A stretch of 64,000 bases of DNA from Escherichia phage JEP8, in sequence record MT764208.1; one strand, 5' to 3'. A program made the position numbers and the translations under genes. Below the pieces are notes generated by a model. It was not told the DNA's origin, did no database searches, and saw nothing but the letters and a program-made list of their open reading frames with translations. Below, one piece after another: positions 887 through 60,185 of the stretch (its first letter is position 1; each line of letters begins with the position of its first letter).

Positions 887-2000
887 CATTATGTTCAGCG
901 CGGTTCGCTACTCCCGCGCCCGTTCTCTTGCGAACTGCTACATGTCACCATGTAGATCAGACTATATCACATTCTCATAGAGAATCCTGCCATTTCGAAT
1001 CGCTTGATTCTACTCTACTCGGTTCGTTACCCTTTCGATAGTCGTTGAACAACTGCATCTTTAAGCTCATTTTGATCAAACGGTGTTCTCTTACAGTACC
1101 CGCTATAATTCTTAGCAAAAGGTTTCTTCTTACCAAAGATCTCTTTTCCTGAATTATGTGCTTCAACAAGAAAATTCACCATTTCATCAAATGTGAAACT
1201 TGCAAATTTAGCATAAGTTTCATTACGTTTTGACATTATTTTACTCATAACTTCCGGTCGTTTAGACGCTGAATTTTCGCGTTTCTCGCCAGTATTAAAT
1301 GATACCAACTCACCGGAAACATATCTAGGATCATCACAACTAACTCTAAACCGATTTCCTTCATTATCCTTAACGATAACAGTATTCTTTAGCTTTTCTG
1401 CCATAGAATCAAGACCTTTTCGTATAGTGTCCTCATCAGCCCCGAAATATTTCTTTCCGCTCATATCGGTTCTGGCTTTTCCGGTCTTGTTTTCGGATAT
1501 TTTCAGTCTAACTTCCTCTCGCTTGGCTGGGTTATTGTCTCCAGCGAATGCATCTTTGGTTAACGCCTTCACTTTATCGTCATAAGATCCTCTAGAGATG
1601 AAAGCATATGCTCTCTTGCATTCACCGTTATTGAATATTAAGCACAATAACCGATGCGCCTCGACGTGGTCTTCAAACTTAAGCCTAACAAGATTCCATT
1701 TATCTAACCGATATTCAGGGAACATTGACTTCGGGCATATATGATGCACCTCGGAATATTCTTCACCCTGATACGGATTAGACACCAGTTTAATGTAGTC
1801 GTTTAATGCTTCCTCGTTATGTATTTCGTACTTTCTTAAAATGTCTTTCATCTCGCGCCTCCAATGTATATCAATATCTATATACATTATAAGACACGTT
1901 AGCTCAAAATGCAACTGCTGCTGATTGTCTCCTTAGAGATTTCCCAGCAATTAAGCAGGTTATTCGATCACTGTCACCAGTGAAAGCCCCATATCAGTTT
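887..2000 (-). mobile_element. Putative group I intron in gene 43 carrying an HNH homing endonuclease ORF
   Basis: Upstream exon ends ...ACU UCC CU (U at 2001); intervening sequence ends with G at 887; joining restores T-S-L-Y-P-S. GGGG at intron nt 11-14 can pair with exon CCCU (P1, G-U at splice site). P-like AAUUGCUGGGAAA and Q-like AAUCAGCAGC (UGCUG/CAGCA pairing), S-like GAUAUAGUC, and GNRA-capped hairpins (CACUG-GUGA-CAGUG; CUACAUG-GUGA-CAUGUAG). Confidence 0.6.
1027..1851 (-). CDS. HNH homing endonuclease (encoded inside the gene 43 intervening sequence)
   Basis: HNH motif EVHHICPKS...WNLVRL...EDHVEAH. ORF track 1027..1914 trimmed to the ATG at 1851 (MKDILRKYEIHNEE...), which has GGAGG 6 nt upstream. 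Confidence 0.8.
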   Translation of the reverse strand: MKDILRKYEIHNEEALNDYIKLVSNPYQGEEYSEVHHICPKSMFPEYRLDKWNLVRLKFEDHVEAHRLLCLIFNNGECKRAYAFISRGSYDDKVKALTKDAFAGDNNPAKREEVRLKISENKTGKARTDMSGKKYFGADEDTIRKGLDSMAEKLKNTVIVKDNEGNRFRVSCDDPRYVSGELVSFNTGEKRENSASKRPEVMSKIMSKRNETYAKFASFTFDEMVNFLVEAHNSGKEIFGKKKPFAKNYSGYCKRTPFDQNELKDAVVQRLSKG

Positions 2001-3202
2001 AGGGAAGTAAGGTCAAAGCTCATCATCCAACGGTAAGCATTCGGCACAGGTTCTTTTACAAATGCGCCTGGATAAGTCTGCTTAGGCTGTATCTTATTTT
2101 CCGGTACTACTTTACCCTCTGCTTTCAGAGATCCGAAGATAATAGCATCCCATACCTTCATCGGGTTATATACATGGTTAAACTTAATTTTCGCATAGAA
2201 ACATAGACTATACACAAGATCGATAAATCCACGCTTTTTATCAATCGCCAGCACACGGTCAACGTCGCCGATGTTATAATCGATGTAAAGTTGATGGTTG
2301 TCATCACGCAATTTCTTTAATGGACCATCATAATCAACCTTACCGATTCCTGTCTCATATTCAGCAACATAATCTAATGCATATGTTGGTTGAGTCGTAA
2401 AGCTAAATTTCTTGTACAGGTCAATATAATCAAGGCTTTCGATCCCCATGATCGTAAATGCTTCACGCTCGTTGCCAAAATCATCCTGTGAGATTCTGGA
2501 TTTAATCTTACCGCACGGGCTTAGACGGTTTGCCGTTCGACTTCCAAACTTATTCCCGATACGTTTAATGATATATGGAATATCGAATGTTTCTGTGTTC
2601 CAGCCAGTGAAACCAACGGGTCGGTTTTCCTCAAAGAATCGGATGTATTCTAACAGCAATTCATCTTCTGTGTCATAAACGTTATAAACAACGCGCTCCA
2701 CAATATCAGGTCGAAGAATAGACTTGCTTGCTTCCCAGATTTCACCGTTTTTTCCTTTCAAATCAAATACAAAGAAACGATCATGTAAGGAATCATAATG
2801 CGTAATTGCATCGATAGGATATTTCGCTTCTTCTGGTTTAGGAAATTCTGGGGCAGTGACCTCAATATCAACCCACGCTACACGGATTTTATTTCGGTCA
2901 TATCGAATCTCGCCTTTATATGTATCGGACAGATAGGAGATGATAAAATCATCCATCCCTAGTGCCTCTTGCCCCATTTCCCCCATCTTTTTACGCCATT
3001 TGTTGGCCTCGTTCATAGATGGGAATTTTTTAGCAATGCAAGGCTTGCCATAGATATCTTTATAATTCGTAACCATACCAGGCGCGGCATGATGAAATAA
3101 AGTTGGCGTATATTCAACGTAACGCTCTTGTTCTTGTCCAGCATCATCAATATAACGCTCGTAGATCTTATCACCCACTCGCTCACATGACAGAAAATAC
3201 AT
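2001..3202 (-). CDS. 43: DNA polymerase gp43, upstream (N-terminal) exon
   Basis: MYFLSCERVGDKIYERYIDD...DIEV...FDLTSL matches the T4 gp43 N-terminus and 3'-5' exonuclease region (DIEVT, YIDLY...). ATG at 3202 preceded by GGAGGA; the track start at 3232 is GTG. Frame stops with TGA (1994-1996) just past the proposed 5' splice site. Confidence 0.9.
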
Positions 3203-3234
3203 AATATAAACTCCTCCACTTACGAAAGACACTC

Positions 3235-3263
3235 ATTATAGGGGAATCGACTTGGTTTGTCAA
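3235..3263 (-). promoter_or_regulatory. sigma70-type early promoter upstream of gene 43 (TTGACA-N17-TATAAT)
   Basis: Minus strand: TTGACA (3263..3258), 17-nt spacer, TATAAT (3240..3235), then GGAGGA RBS and ATG at 3202. Confidence 0.6.
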
Positions 3264-3284
3264 TACCCCTATCCCATCAGTATC

Positions 3285-3647
3285 TTAGCGTCCGATCTGA
3301 TATTTCTCGATCAGAGTCCACTCTTCTTTCTGTTTGAAAGACAGTACACGGAAATTATTAACTTCGGTAGTTTCAAAATCACTATCAATTAGGGTACATA
3401 GATTCCACTGCGCCAGAAGTTTTGCAATGTTATTACGGCGTAATTCATCTTCCCACGTCATTTTAACACTACGACCATCTAATTTCAACAACTCCTTGAA
3501 ATGAACGATGTAATAGCGCCCTTTCTTCTGGAGAATATGACAAGACTGATACAGAGTCTTGTCTCGATTGTTGGCAATGCCGCAGCGGGTTAAAGTCTCC
3601 TTAATTTTAAGGAAGTTTTCAGGACTAATCAAATTAATTTCAATCAT
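3285..3647 (-). CDS. regA: Translational repressor RegA
   Basis: MIEINLISPENFLKIKETLTRCGIANNRDKTLYQSCHILQKKGRYYIVHFKE... closely matches T4 RegA; position between 62 and 43 as in T4. Confidence 0.9.
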   Translation of the reverse strand: MIEINLISPENFLKIKETLTRCGIANNRDKTLYQSCHILQKKGRYYIVHFKELLKLDGRSVKMTWEDELRRNNIAKLLAQWNLCTLIDSDFETTEVNNFRVLSFKQKEEWTLIEKYQIGR

Positions 3648-3648
3648 T

Positions 3649-4227
3649 TTACCACCTTTCTATAATCTTTTTAAGTCGTTTCCTTTCTGTCTGATTCTTA
3701 GTAACACCCGCCAAAAGTTCATCGGTCGCATACGGTTTAATGTGCTTCAATAACTTGTCCATATATCCCTTTTCATTAGCCAAATCGAGATAAAACCGGG
3801 CGTCATCCATATTTACACAATATGCTTTCGCCACTGCCGTTAAAACCAATTTTTGGTCCAATTCTTCTGTTAGTTTAGCCCATTTACCGTATCGTTTCCC
3901 CTTAGAAATACTCTGTAAGAGATAATCAAAATGCATTTGATCTGGGAGGCCATGACCGATTAAATTCATCACATACGCGCTATATAGACAATCTGCGTGC
4001 TGGGAAAGAGCGGTGTTAATCCATCTCTGGTTATATGCAGAATTGTTTCCCACATTAACGCGCTGTTTATCTAAGGTGATATGATCCATCAGAGCAAATA
4101 ATGCATTGTCGGTTTTCTCGGTGAACGTGTCCGCTAATTCAGACACCTTTTCCCAATCACGAGAGCGCCATGCAATTTCATGCTCGTTTAATTGTGTATC
4201 ATCTTCACCGAAAAATTGACCTAACAT
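3649..4227 (-). CDS. 62: Clamp loader small subunit gp62
   Basis: Size and position between 44 and regA; motifs NEHEIAW..DW, MNLIGHGL, KGKRYGKWAKL match T4 gp62. Confidence 0.85.
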   Translation of the reverse strand: MLGQFFGEDDTQLNEHEIAWRSRDWEKVSELADTFTEKTDNALFALMDHITLDKQRVNVGNNSAYNQRWINTALSQHADCLYSAYVMNLIGHGLPDQMHFDYLLQSISKGKRYGKWAKLTEELDQKLVLTAVAKAYCVNMDDARFYLDLANEKGYMDKLLKHIKPYATDELLAGVTKNQTERKRLKKIIERW

Positions 4228-18720: not shown

Positions 18721-20583
18721 TTACATGTGCTTAACGCGGTTTACCATCTCGGAGTGTTTCCCGTGGTTAAATGGACGCAGATCAACAGATCCAAGATATC
18801 CACTAACGCGACGGATAACATTCATCTTTTCCAGATTGTCATTGCCGCAATCAGGGCAAACAAAACCAGACTCGGTCGCTCTCATTTCCTTATTAGATCC
18901 ACATACATGACATACATCAGAAGGAGTATTAACACCGAAGTAGTGCAATTTATCCATTGCATAGTCTACTACAGTTTCAAGACCTTTCAGGTTGTTTTTC
19001 ATGTCTGGGAACTCAACATAAGAGATCATGCCACCGGACGCCAGCCAGTGATAATCTTTCTCAAAGTCGATTTTCTCAAATGGTGTGACTTTCCGGTCTA
19101 CGTCAAGGTGGAATGAGTTGGTGTACCAGTCTTTATCGGTAGCACCCTTAACAATACCAAATTGCTCTCTGTCCAGTCGATTAAATCGATAGCAAAGGCT
19201 CTCGGCTGGCGTACCGTAAAGACTAAACCCAAGTCCGGTTTCATCCTTCCATTTTTCAGTATAATGACGCAAGATCTTAAGAATATGTTTACCGTATCGC
19301 TGCGCATCTTCCGAATCAAACGGATGAACACCAAACAGGACGCTCAATACCTCATGTAAACCAATATATCCAAGAGAGATACTAGCGCGACCATCTTTCA
19401 ACACTTCCAAAATTTCATCGTTTTGATGAATACGGAAAAATGCACCTTCTGTATACAGCACCGGAGCAACATTGGCTTTAGCGCCTTTTAAAGCGTCTAC
19501 GCGACTCATGAGCGCATCAAAGCAAATAGGCATACGATTGGCTAGCTCTTGTTCGAATAGCTCAATTCTGCGCATTACAGACGCTTTACCAGCACGACGC
19601 GCGGCAATAAGGGCAATACGCGGAAGATTCAGAGTCACAACACCTAAGTTATTACGTCCGTCTAATACTTCTTCTCCTTTCTCATTATGCCACACACCCA
19701 GGAAGCTACGACAACCCATCGGGCTAACCGGAACACTAGATCCGGTGATACTACGGTTATTCTTCGCAGAGATATAATCAGGGTAAAGACGCTTACTAGA
19801 ACATTCCAATGCAAGTTGCTTAATGTCGTAGTTCGGATCTTCCGGTTTAAGGTTTAATCCTTCTTCTAAGAACATCACCAGCTTAGGAAACACCGGAGTG
19901 ATACCATCTTTACCTAAACCTTTAGTTCGAACGTTCAGGATCGCTTTCTGAATCAGTTTTTCTTCCCAGCTAGTACCCATACCAAAGGTTAAAGTCACAA
20001 AAGGCGTTTGACCGTTGGTGGAGAACAAAGTGTTGATTTCATATTCCAACGCTTGATACCCGTCTAAAGTTTCTTTTTCTGTCTTCTCTTGTGCATAGAG
20101 AGTATCAGCTTTGATTCCGTAGGTTTCGGCATCAGCAAGGTGTTTATGATATGTTTTCTCAACATACGGTGCTAACACCTGATCGATGTTTGCGATTGTG
20201 GTCCCTCCATATTGATGACTTGCCACCTGTGCGATAATTTGAGCGGTCACAGCACATGCAACACCGATCGATTTAGGACTTTCGATTTGTGCGCTACCCA
20301 ATTTAAAACCATTCTCTAACATGTCTTTGAGATTAACAAGACAGCAGTTAGTAAACGGCATAGCGGGTGCATAATCCATATCATGATAATGAATATCACC
20401 GTCTACATGCGCTTTATAGATGTGCTCAGGTAACACGGTTTTAGCAATCTGTTTAGACACAGCACCAGCAATCAGATCTCGACGTGTCGGGAATGTTCGC
20501 GCGTCTTTGTTCGCGTTCTCTTTACTTACTTCGTTTTCTTTACCCGTTGCGATCTCTGTAATGTCTTTGATTAGTTTTTCCAT
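18721..20583 (-). CDS. nrdD: Anaerobic ribonucleoside-triphosphate reductase NrdD (glycyl radical enzyme)
   Basis: 620 aa; C-terminal glycyl-radical motif RVSGYLG and C-terminal Zn-ribbon cysteines (CHVCG...CPDCG); uninterrupted. Confidence 0.9.
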   Translation of the reverse strand: MEKLIKDITEIATGKENEVSKENANKDARTFPTRRDLIAGAVSKQIAKTVLPEHIYKAHVDGDIHYHDMDYAPAMPFTNCCLVNLKDMLENGFKLGSAQIESPKSIGVACAVTAQIIAQVASHQYGGTTIANIDQVLAPYVEKTYHKHLADAETYGIKADTLYAQEKTEKETLDGYQALEYEINTLFSTNGQTPFVTLTFGMGTSWEEKLIQKAILNVRTKGLGKDGITPVFPKLVMFLEEGLNLKPEDPNYDIKQLALECSSKRLYPDYISAKNNRSITGSSVPVSPMGCRSFLGVWHNEKGEEVLDGRNNLGVVTLNLPRIALIAARRAGKASVMRRIELFEQELANRMPICFDALMSRVDALKGAKANVAPVLYTEGAFFRIHQNDEILEVLKDGRASISLGYIGLHEVLSVLFGVHPFDSEDAQRYGKHILKILRHYTEKWKDETGLGFSLYGTPAESLCYRFNRLDREQFGIVKGATDKDWYTNSFHLDVDRKVTPFEKIDFEKDYHWLASGGMISYVEFPDMKNNLKGLETVVDYAMDKLHYFGVNTPSDVCHVCGSNKEMRATESGFVCPDCGNDNLEKMNVIRRVSGYLGSVDLRPFNHGKHSEMVNRVKHM

Positions 20584-23330: not shown

Positions 23331-23804
23331 CTATCTTAAACTTTTTATGAATTGTTTCTTATACTTCTTCGTGATCTCTTCTCTTGTATCAGCGTCGCAG
23401 TAATCGAAACCTTCTGCGTCCATAATAGCAACCATCTCCGCGCGGGTCAAGCGTGAAAATAGTTTTACTTTATCAACGGCATATTGAGGATGTAAATGAT
23501 TGTTGGTGTAGTCTCCTTTGATGTAATTAACATAGTTTGTAGCCCAAACAACGAAATCAGCACCTAAAGCACCAACACCAAACCGCTTAAAGTCTCCGGT
23601 CAACGATCCTTCTAGGCGGTTGCAACACGAATGAAGCAATCCCCTTACGCGGCCTTGCCCTTTCCCATCTAGATCATGATCATGGTCAAGATGGTTTTTG
23701 CTCATATCCTCAAAAAGTGGCAATTGACAAAGGGGGCAAATGCCCCCCTGTTTTTCGAATAGTTCTTGTTTGTACTCTTTAGCACTCTTAGCAGTCAGTA
23801 ACAT
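23331..23804 (-). CDS. 49: Endonuclease VII (Holliday junction resolvase) gp49
   Basis: MLLTAKSAKEYKQ...CPLCQ...HLDHDH...GLLHSCCN matches T4 endonuclease VII; ATG at 23804 with GGAGGGTG RBS. Confidence 0.85.
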   Translation of the reverse strand: MLLTAKSAKEYKQELFEKQGGICPLCQLPLFEDMSKNHLDHDHDLDGKGQGRVRGLLHSCCNRLEGSLTGDFKRFGVGALGADFVVWATNYVNYIKGDYTNNHLHPQYAVDKVKLFSRLTRAEMVAIMDAEGFDYCDADTREEITKKYKKQFIKSLR

Positions 23805-23828
23805 AAATTCACCCTCCAAAGAAGGTAT

Positions 23829-48531: not shown

Positions 48532-48539
48532 TATAAATA
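48532..48539 (+). promoter_or_regulatory. T4-type late promoter core TATAAATA upstream of gene 53
   Basis: Exact TATAAATA 33 nt upstream of the gene 53 ATG. Confidence 0.6.
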
Positions 48540-49137: not shown

Positions 49138-50937
49138 ATGCTAATGTTTAATAACTCCGTTAAATGGTTTACCGGAATTGTAGAAAACAGGGAAGACCCA
49201 TTAATGCTGGGGCGTGTTCAGGTTAGGATTCATGGTATACATCCCTCGCTATCCGCGCACGGTGACATTCAAGGTCTTCCAACCGAAGATCTATTATGGA
49301 TTACGCCAGTACAAGATATTACAAGCGCGGCGATCTCCGGTATAGGTCAAAGCCCTACTGGTATTGTTGAAGGTTCAATGGTATTTGGTTTGGCTTTAGA
49401 TGAACGTTATTTAAACTGCGTTATTCTTGGTACTATTGCCGGACAATATACAGAGAAACCACTCACTACAGAAGGTTTTTGCGACCCTTCTGGTGCATAT
49501 CCTCGTTATATTGGTAATGATGTTAATATTCTTGCTCGTGGCGGTATTAACCCAGAAACCGGGCAAACAACAAAACCTGATAGTGTCTATATTCGAGATG
49601 AAAACACTGGAGTTGCAGTAAATCCAGACGACGAGCCATTAGACCAAATTCCGGTTGATGATAATCCTGATTTTACAATAGAAAAAATGCTGCGGGGCGA
49701 TGAGGGATATCGCGAGAAATGGTATCTTGATTCAGAAGGATATCCGACAATAGGCATCGGGCATTTGATCATTTATAAGAAAACCAGTGATCTTGATATT
49801 ATCAATAATGAACTTTCTAAGCTGGTAGGGCGTGAAGTTACAAACGGAAGACTTACCGCCGAAGAAGTTAGTAAAGTATTTGCCGACGATATAGAAAAGA
49901 CTCGTCGTGATATGCGCAAACATCCACGAATTGCACCTGTCTATAATAAATGTAATGCCTCACGTCGTATGGCATTAGAAAATATGGCGTTTCAAATGGG
50001 TGTTGGTGGATTGGGTAAATTTAAGAATAGTCTTGCTGCGATGTTAGCGGAAGAATGGAAACAAGCCTATGATGGATTACGTCAATCGGTATGGGCTAAC
50101 CAAACTCCAGGACGATCCAGCCGTGTTTCTAAAATTATTCTTACTGGCAACTTAGAATCATATGGCGTAATTGCTCCAAAGAAAGAGGAATCAATTTCTG
50201 ATGATCCGCGAGCACGTTTGAGAAATGCCCGTATTGCTGCCTATAAGACGCAGAGAGCAGAAGAAGACCCAGAAGCACCGTTTACCCCACAAGACACACG
50301 AATCATGTTTAAAGAGCCTAAGAGTTCGTATTCTGCAAGGTATCCTTATAACCATGTGTACGAGTCAGAGAGCGGTCATATTATCGAGATTGATGATACT
50401 CCTTCTCATGAGCGATATCATCGTAAACATCCTTCGGGTACATTTGAAGAAACCAGACCGGACGGAACGAGGGTAGAAAAGATTGAAGGCGATGATTATC
50501 TGATCGTTAAACAAGGCCGGAAAGTAAACGTTAAGGGTAATTTGCAAGTTGTTGTTGAAGGTGACGCGCAAGTTTATTATATGGGTAATGTGATGCAAAC
50601 CGTTGATGGTAACGTCACTGAATTTATTCGTGGTAATGTTAATCAGACCGTTGAAGGTACTGCTAACATGCATGTTGTAGGTGATGTTACCGCTCAGCTT
50701 GACGCTAATTTGACGGCTAACGTCAAGGGTAATGCTGAATTAATGATCGAGGGTAACACTACCGAAACAATTAAAGGTAACTATGATTTAACCGTTGAGG
50801 GTAATTTTAATATGACCGTCAATGGCACTAAATCAGATCAGGTTAATGGTGACTGGTCCCGTAATTGTGGTGCAAGCGTTAAAGATATTGCATCTGGTAC
50901 AGTTAAAATTGATGGTAGCCGTATTGATCTTGGGTGA
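49138..50937 (+). CDS. 5: Baseplate hub / tail lysozyme gp5
   Basis: N-terminal OB-fold region, central T4-lysozyme-like domain (EGYPTIGIGHL...NMAFQMG...WANQTP), C-terminal beta-helix repeats (VxGNxxxxVEG...). Confidence 0.9.
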   Translation: MLMFNNSVKWFTGIVENREDPLMLGRVQVRIHGIHPSLSAHGDIQGLPTEDLLWITPVQDITSAAISGIGQSPTGIVEGSMVFGLALDERYLNCVILGTIAGQYTEKPLTTEGFCDPSGAYPRYIGNDVNILARGGINPETGQTTKPDSVYIRDENTGVAVNPDDEPLDQIPVDDNPDFTIEKMLRGDEGYREKWYLDSEGYPTIGIGHLIIYKKTSDLDIINNELSKLVGREVTNGRLTAEEVSKVFADDIEKTRRDMRKHPRIAPVYNKCNASRRMALENMAFQMGVGGLGKFKNSLAAMLAEEWKQAYDGLRQSVWANQTPGRSSRVSKIILTGNLESYGVIAPKKEESISDDPRARLRNARIAAYKTQRAEEDPEAPFTPQDTRIMFKEPKSSYSARYPYNHVYESESGHIIEIDDTPSHERYHRKHPSGTFEETRPDGTRVEKIEGDDYLIVKQGRKVNVKGNLQVVVEGDAQVYYMGNVMQTVDGNVTEFIRGNVNQTVEGTANMHVVGDVTAQLDANLTANVKGNAELMIEGNTTETIKGNYDLTVEGNFNMTVNGTKSDQVNGDWSRNCGASVKDIASGTVKIDGSRIDLG

Positions 50938-50945
50938 GGTAACTA

Positions 50946-51512
50946 ATGGTTGAAATTCTTCCGATGAGTTCAAAATTGGAGGATATCAGCGAGCGAGAAA
51001 TCTTTGAGGTGGTGTTCTCTTATAAAGCAACGCCACCGGATGCAAATACCACATACACGATTAAAGAGTTTAAGATCAGCGAGTATCGCCCTAATAAGGG
51101 CGTTACCGTTGAAGAAACTAAAATATCTGGTGAGTATCGGGATAGTTTTTCGCTTGGCACGGATTCTCTTAAATATATAACGAAAGATAGAATTAAAAAA
51201 TCTGCCGGAAGTTTTGATGATTTACCAGATCCAACTACCGCAGATCTATATTATTTTAACGCTCCTACACGTCTACAGGAGGTTTATACTTATAAAGTCA
51301 CCCTAACCTATATCCAATCTGTTTCAGAGTCTTCTGGTGGTTCTGGTGAAGGAAATAGTGGTGGTTCCAATAGCCGAGAGGGTGCTGGTGAAACTAATCC
51401 GCCTCCGGTAGTAACCGAACACACAATAGAGAAAGTTTATACTCAAACCGTTTTTGGAAATTGGGATGTGTGGTCGCAGCAACTAAGAGATTATGTACAT
51501 AGGGGTGTTTAA
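50946..51512 (+). CDS. Hypothetical protein at the gene 5.1 position
   Basis: 188-aa ORF directly after gene 5. Confidence 0.6.
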   Translation: MVEILPMSSKLEDISEREIFEVVFSYKATPPDANTTYTIKEFKISEYRPNKGVTVEETKISGEYRDSFSLGTDSLKYITKDRIKKSAGSFDDLPDPTTADLYYFNAPTRLQEVYTYKVTLTYIQSVSESSGGSGEGNSGGSNSREGAGETNPPPVVTEHTIEKVYTQTVFGNWDVWSQQLRDYVHRGV

Positions 51513-51578
51513 TGGCTGGCGGGTGTCGATGCCCCGCCGTCATAAATAGTTATATAATGATTTAATATGAGGTGTTTT

Positions 51579-52319
51579 ATGATTAAAGTGCATGACGATT
51601 TCAAAGAACTTTATAATGTATGCTCTGAACGTTTTTATTATGATGAAACGAGCGGAACAATTAGACGAAAATATGATTGTAAGAGCAATCATTATAAAGC
51701 GGGTGATGTAGTAGGATATAAAAGAAAACAAAAAAGAACAAATAGTGAAGATGATGTGTGCTATCTGTTTACTAAGATTGATGGAGTTTCTTATTCAATT
51801 CAACAAATTGTCTTCTTGCTTACCGACGGATATATACCAAATTGCATCGATCATATTAACAGAGACACACTAGATAATCACCGTGAAAATCTTCGTGATG
51901 CATCGCGAAGCGGAAATGCTCGCAATAAGTGCAAAGTATATAAAAATGGTTTCGCCTCTTCCGATTACATTGGTGTGTCTAAGCGGGGTTCTGGATTTAG
52001 GTGTCGTATTAGAATAAACCATGTTATTGCATATGATGAAACGTTCGAAAATGAAACATCTGCTGCATATGCATATAACGTAGAATGTATAAAATTAGGT
52101 GTCAGTGAGTATACCAACTTTAATAAATTTGAAGACGAAGAATCTGTTAGGAAACTTTACGAAAAAGAGAAAGAAAATAAAGAGTTTCAAGAATATTGGA
52201 AGGGAACACATAAACAGGGTAAAAGATGGGGTGCTAAAGTTAAGAGTGTGCGTTTGGGTACATTCGAAACAAGGGAAGAAGCTAGACTAGCTATAATTCG
52301 CTACAAAGAGGGGTTTTGA
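51579..52319 (+). CDS. HNH homing endonuclease with two AP2-like DNA-binding domains
   Basis: HNH motif [18 protein letters not shown]; AP2-like segments [38 protein letters not shown] and [35 protein letters not shown]. Start at the second ATG (GAGGTG RBS). Confidence 0.8.
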
Positions 52320-52612
52320 TGGCTGGTTTATCATATGACAAAGCAAAAACTACTGGACATGGTAATTACGGTCCGACAATAATTAATGCAACTCAATCTA
52401 AGGTATTTGTTGAGGGTATCCCTGTATTAGTCGAAGGAGACCCAATTACACCACACACAAAAACAACAAAGCCTTATGATACACACGGGGGAACTACGGT
52501 CGCCAGTACCCCGAAAGTATTTGTTACCGGAAAGAAAGCAATTCAAATGGCAGATCGTATTAGCTGTGGCGATACCGTCGCTATGGCATCACCGAAGGTA
52601 TTCATAAAATGA
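52316..52612 (+). CDS. 5.4: PAAR-repeat spike-tip protein gp5.4
   Basis: 98 aa; position before gene 6; PAAR-like repeated beta-strand motifs ([19 protein letters not shown]...[10 protein letters not shown]...KVFIK). Confidence 0.8.
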
Positions 52613-54513
52613 CAAAGCAAAAGATTACACAAATTCCTGATATTTTTAATGCTGCTACATTCGATGAAATTAAAAGCGCATTAACAGACTGGATGAGAAA
52701 CCAGGAAGAATTTAAAGATTTTGATTTTAATGGTGCTGGTATTAACGTATTGATGGACTTGCTCGCATATAACACTCTGTATATTCAGCAATTCGCTAAC
52801 GCCGCGCTATATGAATCTTTTATCAGAACTGCAATTAAGCGTAGTTCAGTTGTTCAAGCCGCGCAAGATTTAGGATATTTGCCAGCAAGTAAAACTAGTG
52901 CATCGACTACAATTATGTTGCACGTAACACATCCTCGAAATCCGGCAAGTATTCGAATCCCACGAGGAACTAAATTTATTGCAAGTGTGGACCGCCAGAC
53001 GTCTTATACGTTTGTTACTACAGAAGACGTTGTGAGCGTTTTAGGTTCAAATGGTTTATATACGCCTATGCTTAAAGTCGCGCAAGGTCGTATTGTTCGT
53101 ACAGAAATGTTATTTGATCCGAAGAAACAAATTCTGATCCGCGATCCAGATATTGACCGCGCTCAGGTTAAGTTGTGGGTAGACGGTGCTGAATGGAAAG
53201 ACTGGACGCGAGAAAGTATTGTTAATGCAACTGGCGCTAGTAATATTTTCTATATGCGTGAAACCGTAGACGGTCATACCGAAATCTTCTTTGGTGAAGG
53301 TGAATCAACTTTATCTGCTGCTGGCGGTGCACTGGAAGCAAATTATATTGGTGGACTTAAGCCGTCAACTGGTGCTAATATCGTAATTGAATATATTAGC
53401 ACTAAAGGCGCGGAAGCAAACGGATCTGTCAATTTCACATACGCGGATACCCTTGCATCTATCTCTATTGTTAAAATTATTGAGAATCCGACAAATGATC
53501 GTGATTATGTCGGTGCAGATGGTGGTGGTGATCCTGAATCAATCGAACGTATTCGTGAACTTGCTCCGGTAATGCGTGAATCTCAGCGTCGTTGTGTTAC
53601 TGCTTCCGACTATGAGGCTTTTGTGTCTAGCCGTTTTGGTAGTATTGTTCAGGCGGTACAATGTTTCACCGACCGAGAAAAACCGGGTTATGCTTTTGTT
53701 GCGGTTAAGCCTAAATCTGGCTTGCGCTTGACAACTGTTCAAAAAGAAGATATGCGGGATTATCTGGCAAAATATAATCTTGCCCCTATCACGCCGAGCA
53801 TCATTGACCCTAACTATCTGTATATTAAACAGAATATTAAAGTTTCCTATTCAATCAATGACTTGTCAGAATCAGAGCAGTGGTTGCGCGGTGCGGTTAT
53901 TGATCAGATTGATGCATATTATACCGACGAAGTGGAAATTTTTAACCAGACCTTTAGTAAGTCTAAAATGCTTGCGCGTATTGACAAAGCTGATGTATCT
54001 GTGATAGGTTCTAGTGCAGAAATCGAGATGGTGCGAGAGATCGACAACTTCTATAAAGCACCGATGGCTGGAATCAAGTTTTTAAACCAGTATAAGAGCG
54101 GAATCAAGTCTAGTTCATTCAACTTCGAAAAGGACGACAAGCAATATCCGATCCATTATGTAAGTACAGAAATGAACAAAGAATCCGGTTTAGCTAAATT
54201 GCTGGTTGGACCTTTCCCTGTTGGTTCTGCAATCGCTTTACCGCACTATTCCGGCACTGATTTTGATAAAGAGGTTATCGACGGTGCAGACCTATACTTT
54301 GAGGTTGGAGAGGTTCAGCATTATGAAGACCTTATTTCATGGGATCTGGGTAAACTGAATATCAATAGCGATCGCTTTACGGGTTCATATATTGAGTTGA
54401 CAGCTAAACCGATTGCTGATAACATCTTTACTAAAGACGGTTCTTTGATCGTGTTTGAAAACGATCTCCGTCCTCAGTACACAACTATTAGTCTGGAGGC
54501 AATTGCTCAATGA
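52609..54513 (+). CDS. 6: Baseplate wedge protein gp6
   Basis: 634 aa, position and size as T4 gp6; N-terminal ...[27 protein letters not shown]. Confidence 0.85.
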
Positions 54514-60148: not shown

Positions 60149-60185
60149 TTTATAAATAATACATCATAACATGAGGAATTAAACA

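Follow-up and report, generated by a model that had tools for sequence, protein, structure and literature searches.

A probable free-standing HNH-AP2 homing endonuclease cassette between baseplate genes 5.1 and 5.4 of a Krischvirus

The insertion and its junctions

The window, the whole stretch of 64,000 nucleotides analyzed here (Escherichia phage JEP8, accession no. MT764208.1), comes from a Krischvirus, an RB49-like coliphage. Positions 51513 to 52319 form an 807-bp insertion between the baseplate genes 5.1 and 5.4, in agreement with an earlier note on this DNA that had placed an endonuclease between the ORF in the 5.1 position and the PAAR gene. The principal features are as follows.

50946-51512, plus strand: gene 5.1, 188 aa, the upstream host gene (ORF list; annotated 5.1 in RB49 and its relatives)
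51513-52319, plus strand: insertion, 807 bp relative to empty-site relatives (megablast, multiple alignment, composition)
51579-52319, plus strand: endonuclease gene, 246 aa plus stop (ORF, Pfam, PHROG; start as annotated in relatives)
52319-52612, plus strand: gene 5.4, the PAAR spike tip, 97 aa, the downstream host gene (Pfam PAAR_motif, 41.2 bits; annotation of relatives)

In megablast comparisons, a window stretch of 1,801 bp corresponds to 994 bp in 53 of 59 Krischvirus records, which have a precise empty site in the form of a TAATG overlap of 5.1 and 5.4, while the remaining 6 carry the cassette at exactly the same point. The left boundary follows the 5.1 stop codon (TAA, 51510-51512), but its placement is ambiguous within an 8-nt exact repeat, ATGGCTGG, found at 51512-51519 and 52319-52326. 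The comparison across relatives that the earlier note had proposed thus reveals a polymorphic site rather than one occupied in all of them, and its reading of the gene as a probable mobile insertion is supported by these filled and exact empty sites together with the state of the outgroups: 5.1 abuts 5.4 in the divergent Krischvirus phiS, in the Karamvirus CkP1, and in the Gualtarvirus PSTRCR_121. As these empty outgroups include two other genera besides a divergent Krischvirus, the insertion is the derived state. Its GC content (35.4%) lies below that of the flanks (40 to 42%), which suggests a foreign origin.

Among about 50 distinct phages sampled, 5 carry the cassette, as does the window; a frequency of about 10% counts against a sweep. 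The presence of the cassette is also incongruent with the relatedness of the flanks. Over 24 kb, no record exceeds 97.5% identity to the phage of the window, and the 3 kb upstream of the insertion are closest to the noncarrier Sf20 (99.17%), with carriers at 98.6 to 98.8%; in the multiple alignment, upstream haplotypes are mixed among carriers and noncarriers. An Rfam scan of 50900-52700 returned no match, group I introns included, and there is therefore no intron around the endonuclease gene, which is free-standing: conserved genes flank it, and no intron or intein encloses it.

The two ends of the insertion and the region ahead of the endonuclease gene contain the following features.

51501-51519, plus strand: left junction repeat, AGGGGTGTTTAATGGCTGG (both junctions aligned with the RB49 empty site)
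51512-51543, plus strand: G/C-tract hairpin (folding; motif scan)
51512-51565, plus strand: mini-ORF of 17 codons, MAGGCRCPAVINSYIMI followed by a stop (translation)
51541-51548, plus strand: CATAAATA, a 7/8 match to the T4-type late promoter TATAAATA (read from the sequence)
52309-52326, plus strand: right junction repeat, AGGGGTTTTGATGGCTGG (both junctions aligned with the RB49 empty site)

The left repeat comprises the 3' terminus of 5.1, which includes the Shine-Dalgarno sequence of 5.4, as well as the TAATG overlap and a vestige of 5.4, its first 8 nt. The right end of the cassette, an imperfect copy (18 to 19 nt) that duplicates the last 19 nt of 5.1, re-creates a Shine-Dalgarno sequence and a stop/start overlap; as a consequence, 5.4 keeps its ribosome site and its overlap with the gene before it. 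By preserving these start signals, the cassette appears to limit the harm that it does to its host. The overlap of the endonuclease gene with the start of 5.4 had been recognized earlier as one of 4 nt; it exists, but that length applies only to a TTG start, and the annotated ATG at 52319 overlaps the endonuclease TGA stop by 1 nt (TGATG).

The direct repeats bear on a different history, in which the gene would be ancestral to the Krischviruses and would have been precisely lost in most lineages, as both the 8-nt exact and the 18- to 19-nt imperfect repeats could mediate precise excision. We disfavor this course of events as highly improbable: the three outgroup phages all have 5.1 abutting 5.4, the GC content of the cassette is below that of the flanks, and excision between the repeats would leave behind the recoded 5.4 described below, yet no such empty site occurs in 68 records and two metagenome collections.

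The hairpin that the earlier note had placed ahead of the endonuclease ORF was recovered and is unique in the window; its core consists of GGCGGG (51518-51523) and CCCGCC (51533-51538) around an N9 loop. The extended stem folds at -18.4 kcal/mol, a value equaled by 1 of 200 shuffles; the 106-nt 5' region as a whole is not exceptional in folding (z of -1.2), so that the hairpin alone stands out. The vestigial start codon of 5.4 lies in the 5' arm of the hairpin, and the hairpin is identical in all carriers save for one base outside the core. No T-run follows it, and a scan of 50800-52800 found neither a sigma-70-type promoter nor an intrinsic terminator near the cassette, on which grounds we rejected the hairpin as a canonical terminator. 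The PeSL cassette of RB49 and phi1 combines an early promoter with a stem-loop (Arbiol et al. 2010, PMC2839356) and is defined by a strong sigma-70-type promoter and a polyG/polyC stem-loop in an intergenic position. The present element has the G/C-tract stem-loop but no sigma-70-like promoter near it in the scanned 50800-52800 interval, and it was not assigned to this class; a TATAAT at 51553-51558 lacks a -35 element. The mini-ORF is opened by the vestigial 5.4 start and closes with a TAA at 51563-51565, 1 nt before the ATG at 51567, an arrangement that might serve as a relay for translational coupling. Exact TATAAATA sites on the plus strand lie at 48532 (before gene 53) and 60151. The near match CATAAATA, directly 3' of the hairpin, is a motif too short for statistical support, and we did not accept it as a late promoter beyond noting it as a weak lead.

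The HNH-AP2 protein

From its first ATG, the endonuclease ORF spans 51567-52319 on the plus strand and encodes 250 aa. The second ATG, at 51579 (246 aa), is the start annotated in GEC-3S, G2494, Skers, W115, and Whisky, and a Shine-Dalgarno GAGG (51570-51573) precedes it by 5 nt. The domains recognized in the product are the following.

51801-51923, plus strand: HNH (His-Me finger) nuclease motif of the DH-N-N type (Pfam HNH_3)
51975-52097, plus strand: first AP2-like unit, residues 133-173, three strands and a helix (alignment with paralogues; structural model)
52206-52307, plus strand: second AP2-like unit, residues 210-243 (Pfam AP2 E of 3e-4, below the cut-off; structural model; Foldseek)

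The HNH motif previously reported in the 250-aa ORF is present: residues 79-119 match Pfam HNH_3 (PF13392) at 31.6 bits, above the curated cut-off of 24.8, and the protein matches PHROG_99, "HNH endonuclease," with an E value of 2.6e-39. D91, H92, N94, N104, R106, and N116 do not vary among the aligned homologues, and the model places a strand-strand-helix at residues 89-114, within the motif. The HNH motif of I-HmuI is likewise of the DH-N-N type, without a zinc-binding CxxC pair. This likeness to I-HmuI (the SPO1 nickase) extends to the T5 enzymes P-TflX and F-Tfl; I-HmuI, however, is intron encoded and has helical DNA-binding modules rather than AP2 units, and the T5 endonuclease genes lie in genomic contexts other than that of the window gene. 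Among the homologues recovered by BLAST, those with a name are the T5-like P-TflX genes, at 27% identity (PMC3528706).

The two AP2-like DNA-binding segments suggested by the earlier reading draw support from alignment with paralogues and from the structural model, and both fall below the Pfam AP2 cut-off. The first has no Pfam match of its own and is somewhat degenerate (W to F, LGTF to DETF); in alignments with paralogous HNH-AP2 proteins of phages, it coincides with their AP2 region. The C-terminal one scores 17.2 to 21.4 bits against Pfam AP2 (PF00847; cut-off of 33.3), with E values of 6e-3 to 3e-4, the latter when scanned alone. Since neither reaches the cut-off, we call both units AP2-like and not certified members of the family. 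The AlphaFold model, of modest confidence (pLDDT of 66.8), contains two strand-strand-strand-helix units at 133-173 and 210-243, and the AP2 motif residues of the two-unit protein (of the YxGV...W.A.I...LGTF...EAA.AY type) align with those of the paralogues. In Foldseek comparisons with the PDB, the five best matches are AP2 domains of plant proteins, including WRI1 and TEM1 (probability of 0.89 to 0.99; E of 0.04 to 0.5); no match reached an E value of 0.001.

Homologues of the protein are few. A PDB sequence search gave matches at chance level only (E of at least 0.28), NCBIfam gave no match, and a search of 5.8 billion protein sequences retrieved, besides a single close cluster, only four distant proteins, the nearest outside the cluster of the gene itself being at most 37% identical. 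That search did not reveal where the gene came from, and the alignment used for structure prediction was shallow. The close relatives are the same gene in other Krischviruses: GEC-3S ORF 137 (YP_009118820), Skers SKERS_8, W115_207, G2494_00136, and Whisky HFGIMCCB_00133. These have 98.0 to 98.8% protein identity to the window copy, the same 807-bp cassette at the same point, and the hairpin and recoded 5.4 tract seen in the window. Annotations of GEC-3S, Skers, and W115 describe the gene as a putative HNH homing endonuclease, and a listing from 2012 gives ORF 137 of GEC-3S as a putative homing endonuclease that RB49, phi1, and JSE lack (PMC3528706). The gene is thus already known and not new. 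The window holds a second HNH endonuclease, as had been claimed: the gene-43-associated ORF at 1030-1914 on the minus strand is real (PHROG_12434, E of 3.5e-131) and belongs to another family, and a tblastn search of the window with the endonuclease found no paralogue.

All six sequenced copies are intact. Their variable coding sites comprise 14 synonymous and 8 nonsynonymous ones, three of the substitutions (F61C, E83D, and D147N) being private to the window copy; the crude dN/dS is about 0.14 (P of about 1e-5 under neutrality), a substitution pattern that indicates purifying selection. This weighs on the alternative that the cassette arrived in an ancestor by homing or illegitimate recombination and is now immobile, its protein inactive or nearly so and its patchy distribution the outcome of ordinary recombination and loss among Krischviruses. 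Such an outcome would fit the presence of the cassette in so few of the distinct phages sampled and the degeneracy of the first AP2-like unit, and activity is undemonstrated for many T4 free-standing endonucleases (PMC2988022, Table 1). Nevertheless, the intact ORFs, the selection on them, and the conserved catalytic residues argue against it, as does the linkage to the 5.4 tract presented below, and we regard it as improbable.

Other occupants of the slot

Proteins of the HNH-AP2 class are known from phages, cyanobacteria, and ciliates and have been proposed as ancestors of the plant AP2/ERF domains. Like the window protein, they consist of an HNH domain followed by one or more AP2-type DNA-binding units, and they have been tabulated for RB49, JSE, RB43, and RB16 (PMC2993671, Table 5). 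A different HNH-AP2 gene, here termed type 2, occupies the slot in six other Krischviruses (KFS-EC, Makalu_003, G5211, G37-3, MIZ4, and MIZ5), and a third occurs in phage Whisky. These other two genes match Pfam AP2 at E values of 1e-7 to 1e-6; their products are 29 to 31% identical to the window protein (type 1) and have one AP2 unit compared with its two AP2-like units.

The supposition that T4 lacks an endonuclease at this position proved wrong, as segC sits between 5.1 and 5.3/5.4 (PMC2988022, Table 1). T4 SegC is encoded in the homologous slot, on the same strand, and inside the late baseplate operon, as is the window gene, but it is a GIY-YIG enzyme without AP2 units, as opposed to the unrelated HNH family of the window; the T4 slot additionally holds gene 5.3, and the SegC target is described as the 5.1/5.3 region, whereas the predicted target of the window endonuclease is the start of 5.4. 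segC is promoterless and read from upstream promoters, and SegC is active in intronless homing (PMC2988022). Its presence in the same slot marks the slot as a recurrent landing place and thereby strengthens the reading of the window cassette as a mobile insertion.

T4 free-standing endonucleases cut away from their own genes and co-convert flanking markers (PMC2988022). MobA, MobE, and Hef, which are intergenic HNH genes of T4-type phages like the window gene, show preferential inheritance, nick or cut a neighboring conserved gene, and co-convert flanks, and in related phages endonuclease genes replace one another at one locus (PMC2988022, citing Sandegren et al. 2005). The Mob proteins differ in their C-terminal DNA-binding regions, and no sequence similarity to the window endonuclease was detected.

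One might alternatively suppose that the gene has been domesticated, as an AP2-type regulator of late or baseplate genes or as a general nuclease against competing phages, acting in superinfection or marker exclusion, with mobility being incidental. Its location inside a late structural operon, with translational coupling for 5.4 kept, and the purifying selection on it are compatible with such a role, and there are precedents in I-TevI, which doubles as an autorepressor, and in the homing endonucleases that cause T2 x T4 marker exclusion (PMC2988022). However, about 90% of the close relatives are without the gene, no operator-like repeat was identified, and the slot is also filled by the two other HNH-AP2 genes and by segC of T4; the occurrence of different genes in one slot points to a landing site and not to a conserved function. 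A domesticated role is accordingly quite improbable.

A recoded tract in gene 5.4 and a model for homing

Comparison of the flanks of carriers and noncarriers singled out one further feature.

52327-52379, plus strand: recoded tract, codons 3-21 of gene 5.4 (fixed-difference comparison; allele survey)

All 16 fixed differences between carriers and noncarriers in about 5 kb of flank fall within these 53 bp, with none upstream. They alter 14 of 19 codons, mostly synonymously, along with P18G and V21I, and P18G replaces a proline conserved from T4 to RB49 in the PAAR spike tip. Among 68 phage records, the recoded allele is confined to the five phages with the cassette and to KFS-EC, in which the right end of the window-type cassette is retained; four further independent metagenome or read-archive assemblies with the endonuclease gene have it as well. 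The tract thus accompanies the gene in 10 of 10 carriers, and no empty-site phage has it. Neither class of recombinant that would delimit the site (the recoded allele at an empty site or the sensitive allele beside the cassette) occurs in the 68 records, IMG/VR, or the JGI metagenomes; the latter two hold very few Krischviruses (IMG/VR has two ordinary empty sites), and pattern scans of both found neither the recoded 5.4 allele nor an empty site with it. Such linkage amid otherwise shuffled flanks would be hard to maintain unless the sensitive allele were selected against beside the gene, which further counters the possibility of an immobile relic.

These observations suggest that 52327-52379 is likely to correspond to the recognition or cleavage region in the empty allele and to a self-immunity patch in carriers. 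Nearly every third codon position in it is changed, as in a patch of a diverged 5.4 gene. It matches no sampled lineage in comparisons with outgroups, and its polarity is ambiguous at most synonymous sites. As the recoding exceeds what resistance would need, the tract marks where linkage is maintained rather than the exact bases recognized.

The recoding linked to type 1 lies downstream of it, in 5.4. Type 2 has its insertion point about 15 nt further upstream and rewrites the final four codons of 5.1. KFS-EC combines type 2 with the last 13 to 17 nt of type 1 and the recoded 5.4 patch of type 1, an arrangement which suggests that type 2 displaced type 1 and that the immunity patch stayed behind. 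We tentatively consider, as a possibility that falls short of being probable, that the Krischvirus 5.1/5.4 junction is a contested site at which two distantly related HNH-AP2 genes succeed one another. If so, the two enzymes would read opposite sides of one junction, and P18G would be a hitchhiking variation in a structural protein.

Taken together, we think it probable that the segment is a free-standing HNH-AP2 homing endonuclease cassette residing in the late baseplate operon and mobile by intronless homing. We propose that the endonuclease would be expressed from the gene 53-to-8 transcription unit at a late stage of infection and that its two AP2-like units would bind an extended, asymmetric site within roughly the first 60 bp of 5.4 of a coinfecting cassette-free relative, near which the HNH domain would nick or cut. 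Recombination-dependent repair on the carrier template could then copy the 807-bp cassette together with the adjacent recoded patch, and the carrier itself would be immune by virtue of the 16 positions at which its patch differs.

For annotation, 51579-52319 is best described as a putative HNH-AP2 homing endonuclease (equivalent to GEC-3S ORF 137) and not as a baseplate component. The current understanding of homing endonucleases is unchanged by this. The comparison does narrow the probable target down to 53 bp at the beginning of 5.4 and supplies natural alleles predicted to be sensitive (RB49, phi1, and JSE) or resistant (GEC-3S and W115), which makes the locus a convenient system for a first biochemical test of a phage HNH-AP2 endonuclease. 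With three different HNH-AP2 genes and segC of T4 using the same short slot, it may also serve for studying competition for one site and the preserved expression of a neighboring gene.

The cassette, its junctions and its probable expression

The window is Krischvirus DNA, from a T4-type coliphage of the RB49 kind, and its nearest record in the phage collection is GEC-3S (97.5% over 24 kb); no identical record is present in that collection. Its late baseplate genes run on the + strand in the order 53, 5, 5.1, endonuclease open reading frame (ORF), 5.4 (PAAR), 6, 7, which bears out the position between 5.1 and the PAAR gene given for the ORF in an earlier note on this DNA.

From 51567 (ATG), + strand: endonuclease ORF, 250 aa
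From 51579 (ATG), + strand: the same gene with the start annotated in relatives, 246 aa, with a GAGG Shine-Dalgarno sequence 5 nt before it
51512-51543, + strand: hairpin with a GGCGGG/CCCGCC core, -18.4 kcal/mol; 1 of 200 shuffled sequences folds equally well

A Megablast search with positions 50900-52700 as the query matched 59 Krischvirus records. Six of these span the query in full (G2494, Skers, Whisky, W115, and GEC-3S twice), whereas the remaining 53 have 994 bp where the window has 1801 bp, i.e., exactly 807 bp are missing, and at these empty sites the 5.1 stop and the 5.4 start overlap as TAATG. Since 5.1 also abuts 5.4 in the divergent Krischvirus phiS, Karamvirus CkP1, and Gualtarvirus PSTRCR_121, the empty state is the ancestral one. 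The insert has a GC content of 35.4% versus 40 to 42% in its neighbors. No Rfam family, group I introns included, matches the cassette region, and the gene is thus free-standing. The presence/absence polymorphism at the junction supports the interpretation of the earlier note that this is a mobile, free-standing insertion.

An exact 8-nt repeat, ATGGCTGG (51512-51519 and 52319-52326), flanks the insert; it corresponds to the first 8 nt of 5.4 and widens to an imperfect repeat of 18 to 19 nt (left copy, AGGGGTGTTTAATGGCTGG; right copy, AGGGGTTTTGATGGCTGG). The copy at the right end of the cassette restores for 5.4 both a Shine-Dalgarno sequence and a one-base stop/start overlap (TGATG); the 4-nt overlap with 5.4 described earlier holds only if a TTG start is used, the annotated overlap being one base. 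On the left side, a 17-codon mini-ORF begins at the 5.4 start that the insertion orphaned; it spans the hairpin, ends 1 nt before the ATG at 51567, and could act as a relay of translational coupling from 5.1 to the endonuclease gene.

The hairpin, which the earlier note had placed before the ORF, is the only one of its kind in the window and is kept in all carriers of the cassette. No T-run follows it, and the terminator scan makes no call there. It resembles the polyG/polyC stem-loops of the PeSL cassettes of RB49 and phi1, which attenuate transcription (PMC2839356); the sigma-70 promoter by which a PeSL is defined is, however, absent in a promoter scan. The CATAAATA sequence after the hairpin (51541-51548) matches the late promoter motif at seven of eight positions and is too short to carry weight, and exact TATAAATA sites occur at 48532, before gene 53, and at 60151. 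Given the lack of a sigma-70 promoter, the weak late motif, and the exact site before gene 53, the simplest reading is that the endonuclease gene belongs to the late 53-to-8 transcript.

A recoded tract of gene 5.4 linked to the cassette

An alignment of the window and 15 relatives, reaching up to 3 kb to each side, was used to compare all six carriers with all nine empty-site phages. The alignment has 275 polymorphic columns, 16 of which are fixed differences between the two groups; all 16 fall within 52327-52379, a tract starting 8 nt after the insert, and none lies in the up to 3 kb aligned upstream of it. The tract covers codons 3 to 21 of 5.4. Of these 19 codons, 14 differ, nearly always by silent changes; only P18G and V21I alter the protein, and gp5.4 is identical elsewhere. 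Pro18 is conserved in RB49-type phages, phiS, CkP1, PSTRCR_121, and T4; at this codon (52370-52372), a Pro-to-Gly change in the PAAR structural protein travels with the endonuclease gene.

Among 68 phage records surveyed, the recoded allele (at least 97.7% identity) is found only in the five carrier phages and KFS-EC, and no other Krischvirus record listed exceeds 86.5%. In four further assemblies that encode the protein (three from Logan and one from ENA), both its position and the 5.4 allele are the same, so that the linkage holds in all 10 carriers. Elsewhere the flanks are shuffled: each upstream haplotype is shared by carriers and noncarriers, and the upstream 3 kb of the window is 99.17% identical to noncarrier Sf20 versus 98.6 to 98.8% to carriers. 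Third codon positions in the tract are changed near saturation, and the change ends abruptly, a pattern unlike stepwise escape mutation. Judged from its sequence, the tract instead resembles a short segment of a diverged 5.4 gene, brought in together with the cassette. Its strict retention in a recombining population is best explained if the RB49-type sequence would be cut in a genome that makes the enzyme, and we accordingly predict a recognition site within roughly the first 60 bp of 5.4 in empty-site phages.

Domain architecture and constraint of the encoded protein

The protein comprises an HNH domain plus two AP2-like units. The HNH motif noticed earlier lies inside a Pfam HNH_3 match (31.6 bits against a curated cutoff of 24.8), PHROG_99 (HNH endonuclease) matches the ORF with an E value of 2.6e-39, and an alignment with distant homologs shows no variation at D91, H92, N94, N104, R106, and N116; the protein is hence a member of the HNH group. 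Membership in the AP2 family is plausible and uncertified. The C-terminal of the two AP2-like segments proposed earlier scores 17 to 21 bits, below the Pfam AP2 cutoff of 33.3, and the first has no Pfam match of its own; in alignments it pairs with the AP2 region of paralogous phage proteins, which themselves hit AP2 with E values of 1e-7 to 1e-6. An AlphaFold model built from a shallow alignment (pLDDT 66.8) has an N-terminal β domain, a strand-strand-helix HNH core, and two three-strand-plus-helix units (residues 133-173 and 210-243). Its five best PDB matches, none reaching an E value of 0.001, are plant AP2 domains, including the double-AP2 protein WRINKLED1.

The ORF is intact in all six sequenced copies, whose 22 variable coding sites divide into 14 synonymous and 8 nonsynonymous ones (147 and 591 available sites, respectively), for a crude dN/dS of 0.14 (P about 1e-5 under neutrality). 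Intactness and low dN/dS count against a decaying relic. In the literature, we found experiments neither on this protein nor on another phage HNH-AP2 enzyme from the same group.

The window has a second HNH endonuclease at gene 43, as noted earlier, which belongs to a family other than that of the 5.1/5.4 gene. The N-terminal part of gene 43 (DNA polymerase; 1997-3232, - strand; Pfam DNA_pol_B_exo1) is followed by a 295-aa ORF (1030-1914, - strand) matching PHROG_12434 (HNH endonuclease; E value, 3.5e-131). Positions 938-1198 give a subthreshold hit to an Rfam group I intron (31.1 bits against 50; E value, 2.4e-5). This arrangement (938-3232, - strand) fits the putative gene 43 intron reported for phage JSE (PMC2993671). 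Ordinary T4-type genes of the window include nrdD, for anaerobic ribonucleotide reductase (18724-20583, - strand; Pfam NRDD E value, 2.6e-175), and gene 49, for endonuclease VII (23334-23819, - strand).

Repeated use of the slot and relation to known homing endonucleases

Two further HNH-AP2 genes occur around 5.4 in relatives (coordinates are those of each relative's sequence).

KFS-EC (L004) 2501-3110 and Makalu_003 (L005) 2501-3112: 179-aa HNH-AP2 gene
Whisky (L002) 3218-3772: third HNH-AP2 gene, Pfam HNH_3 40.7 bits, AP2 29.6 bits

The 179-aa gene (31% identical) occupies the same junction in KFS-EC, Makalu_003, G5211, G37-3, MIZ4, and MIZ5, inserted about 15 nt upstream of the insertion point in the window, and replaces the last four codons of 5.1 (HRGV* to RRSEG*). 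In Makalu_003 it occurs together with the RB49-type 5.4 allele, and in KFS-EC with the last 13 to 17 nt of the window-type cassette and the recoded allele, a mixture which suggests that one endonuclease gene replaced the other. The third gene (184 aa, 29% identical) lies between 5.4 and 6 in Whisky, alone among 50,697 phage records; Whisky also has the gene studied here, so that endonuclease genes flank its 294-bp PAAR gene on both sides. Contrary to the earlier note, T4 does have an endonuclease gene in this slot: segC, an active GIY-YIG homing endonuclease gene, lies there between 5.1 and 5.3/5.4 (PMC2988022, Table 1), and the mobile-insertion interpretation gains from this. Upstream of gene 53, MIZ6 (L010 1-617) and Brandy (L015 1-617) have a minus-strand coding sequence longer than in other relatives, labeled "homing endonuclease" in MIZ6; other relatives have there head completion gene 4, then gene 2. 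The gene 4 position in these two phages may be another variable endonuclease site a few kilobases from the cassette.

The cassette is an ordinary, already annotated member of a well-known kind of selfish element. Putative homing endonuclease genes of the HNH-AP2 class have been tabulated for T4-related phages, with one in RB49, two in JSE, three in RB43, and six in RB16 (PMC2993671, Table 5). The gene itself was reported in 2012 as GEC-3S ORF 137 (246 aa), with similarity to T5 P-TflX and no counterpart in RB49, phi1, or JSE (PMC3528706), and several GenBank records label it "putative HNH homing endonuclease." Work on T4 and its relatives has already established intronless homing, cleavage away from the gene, co-conversion, promoterless cassettes, and the displacement of one endonuclease gene by another at a single locus (PMC2988022). 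Our analysis adds a predicted target/immunity tract and a duplicated junction that preserves 5.4 expression. It also gives evidence that the gene is under purifying selection and has spread between genomic backgrounds, and it portrays the slot as a landing site under contest. The chief value of the finding lies in offering a ready-made experimental system.
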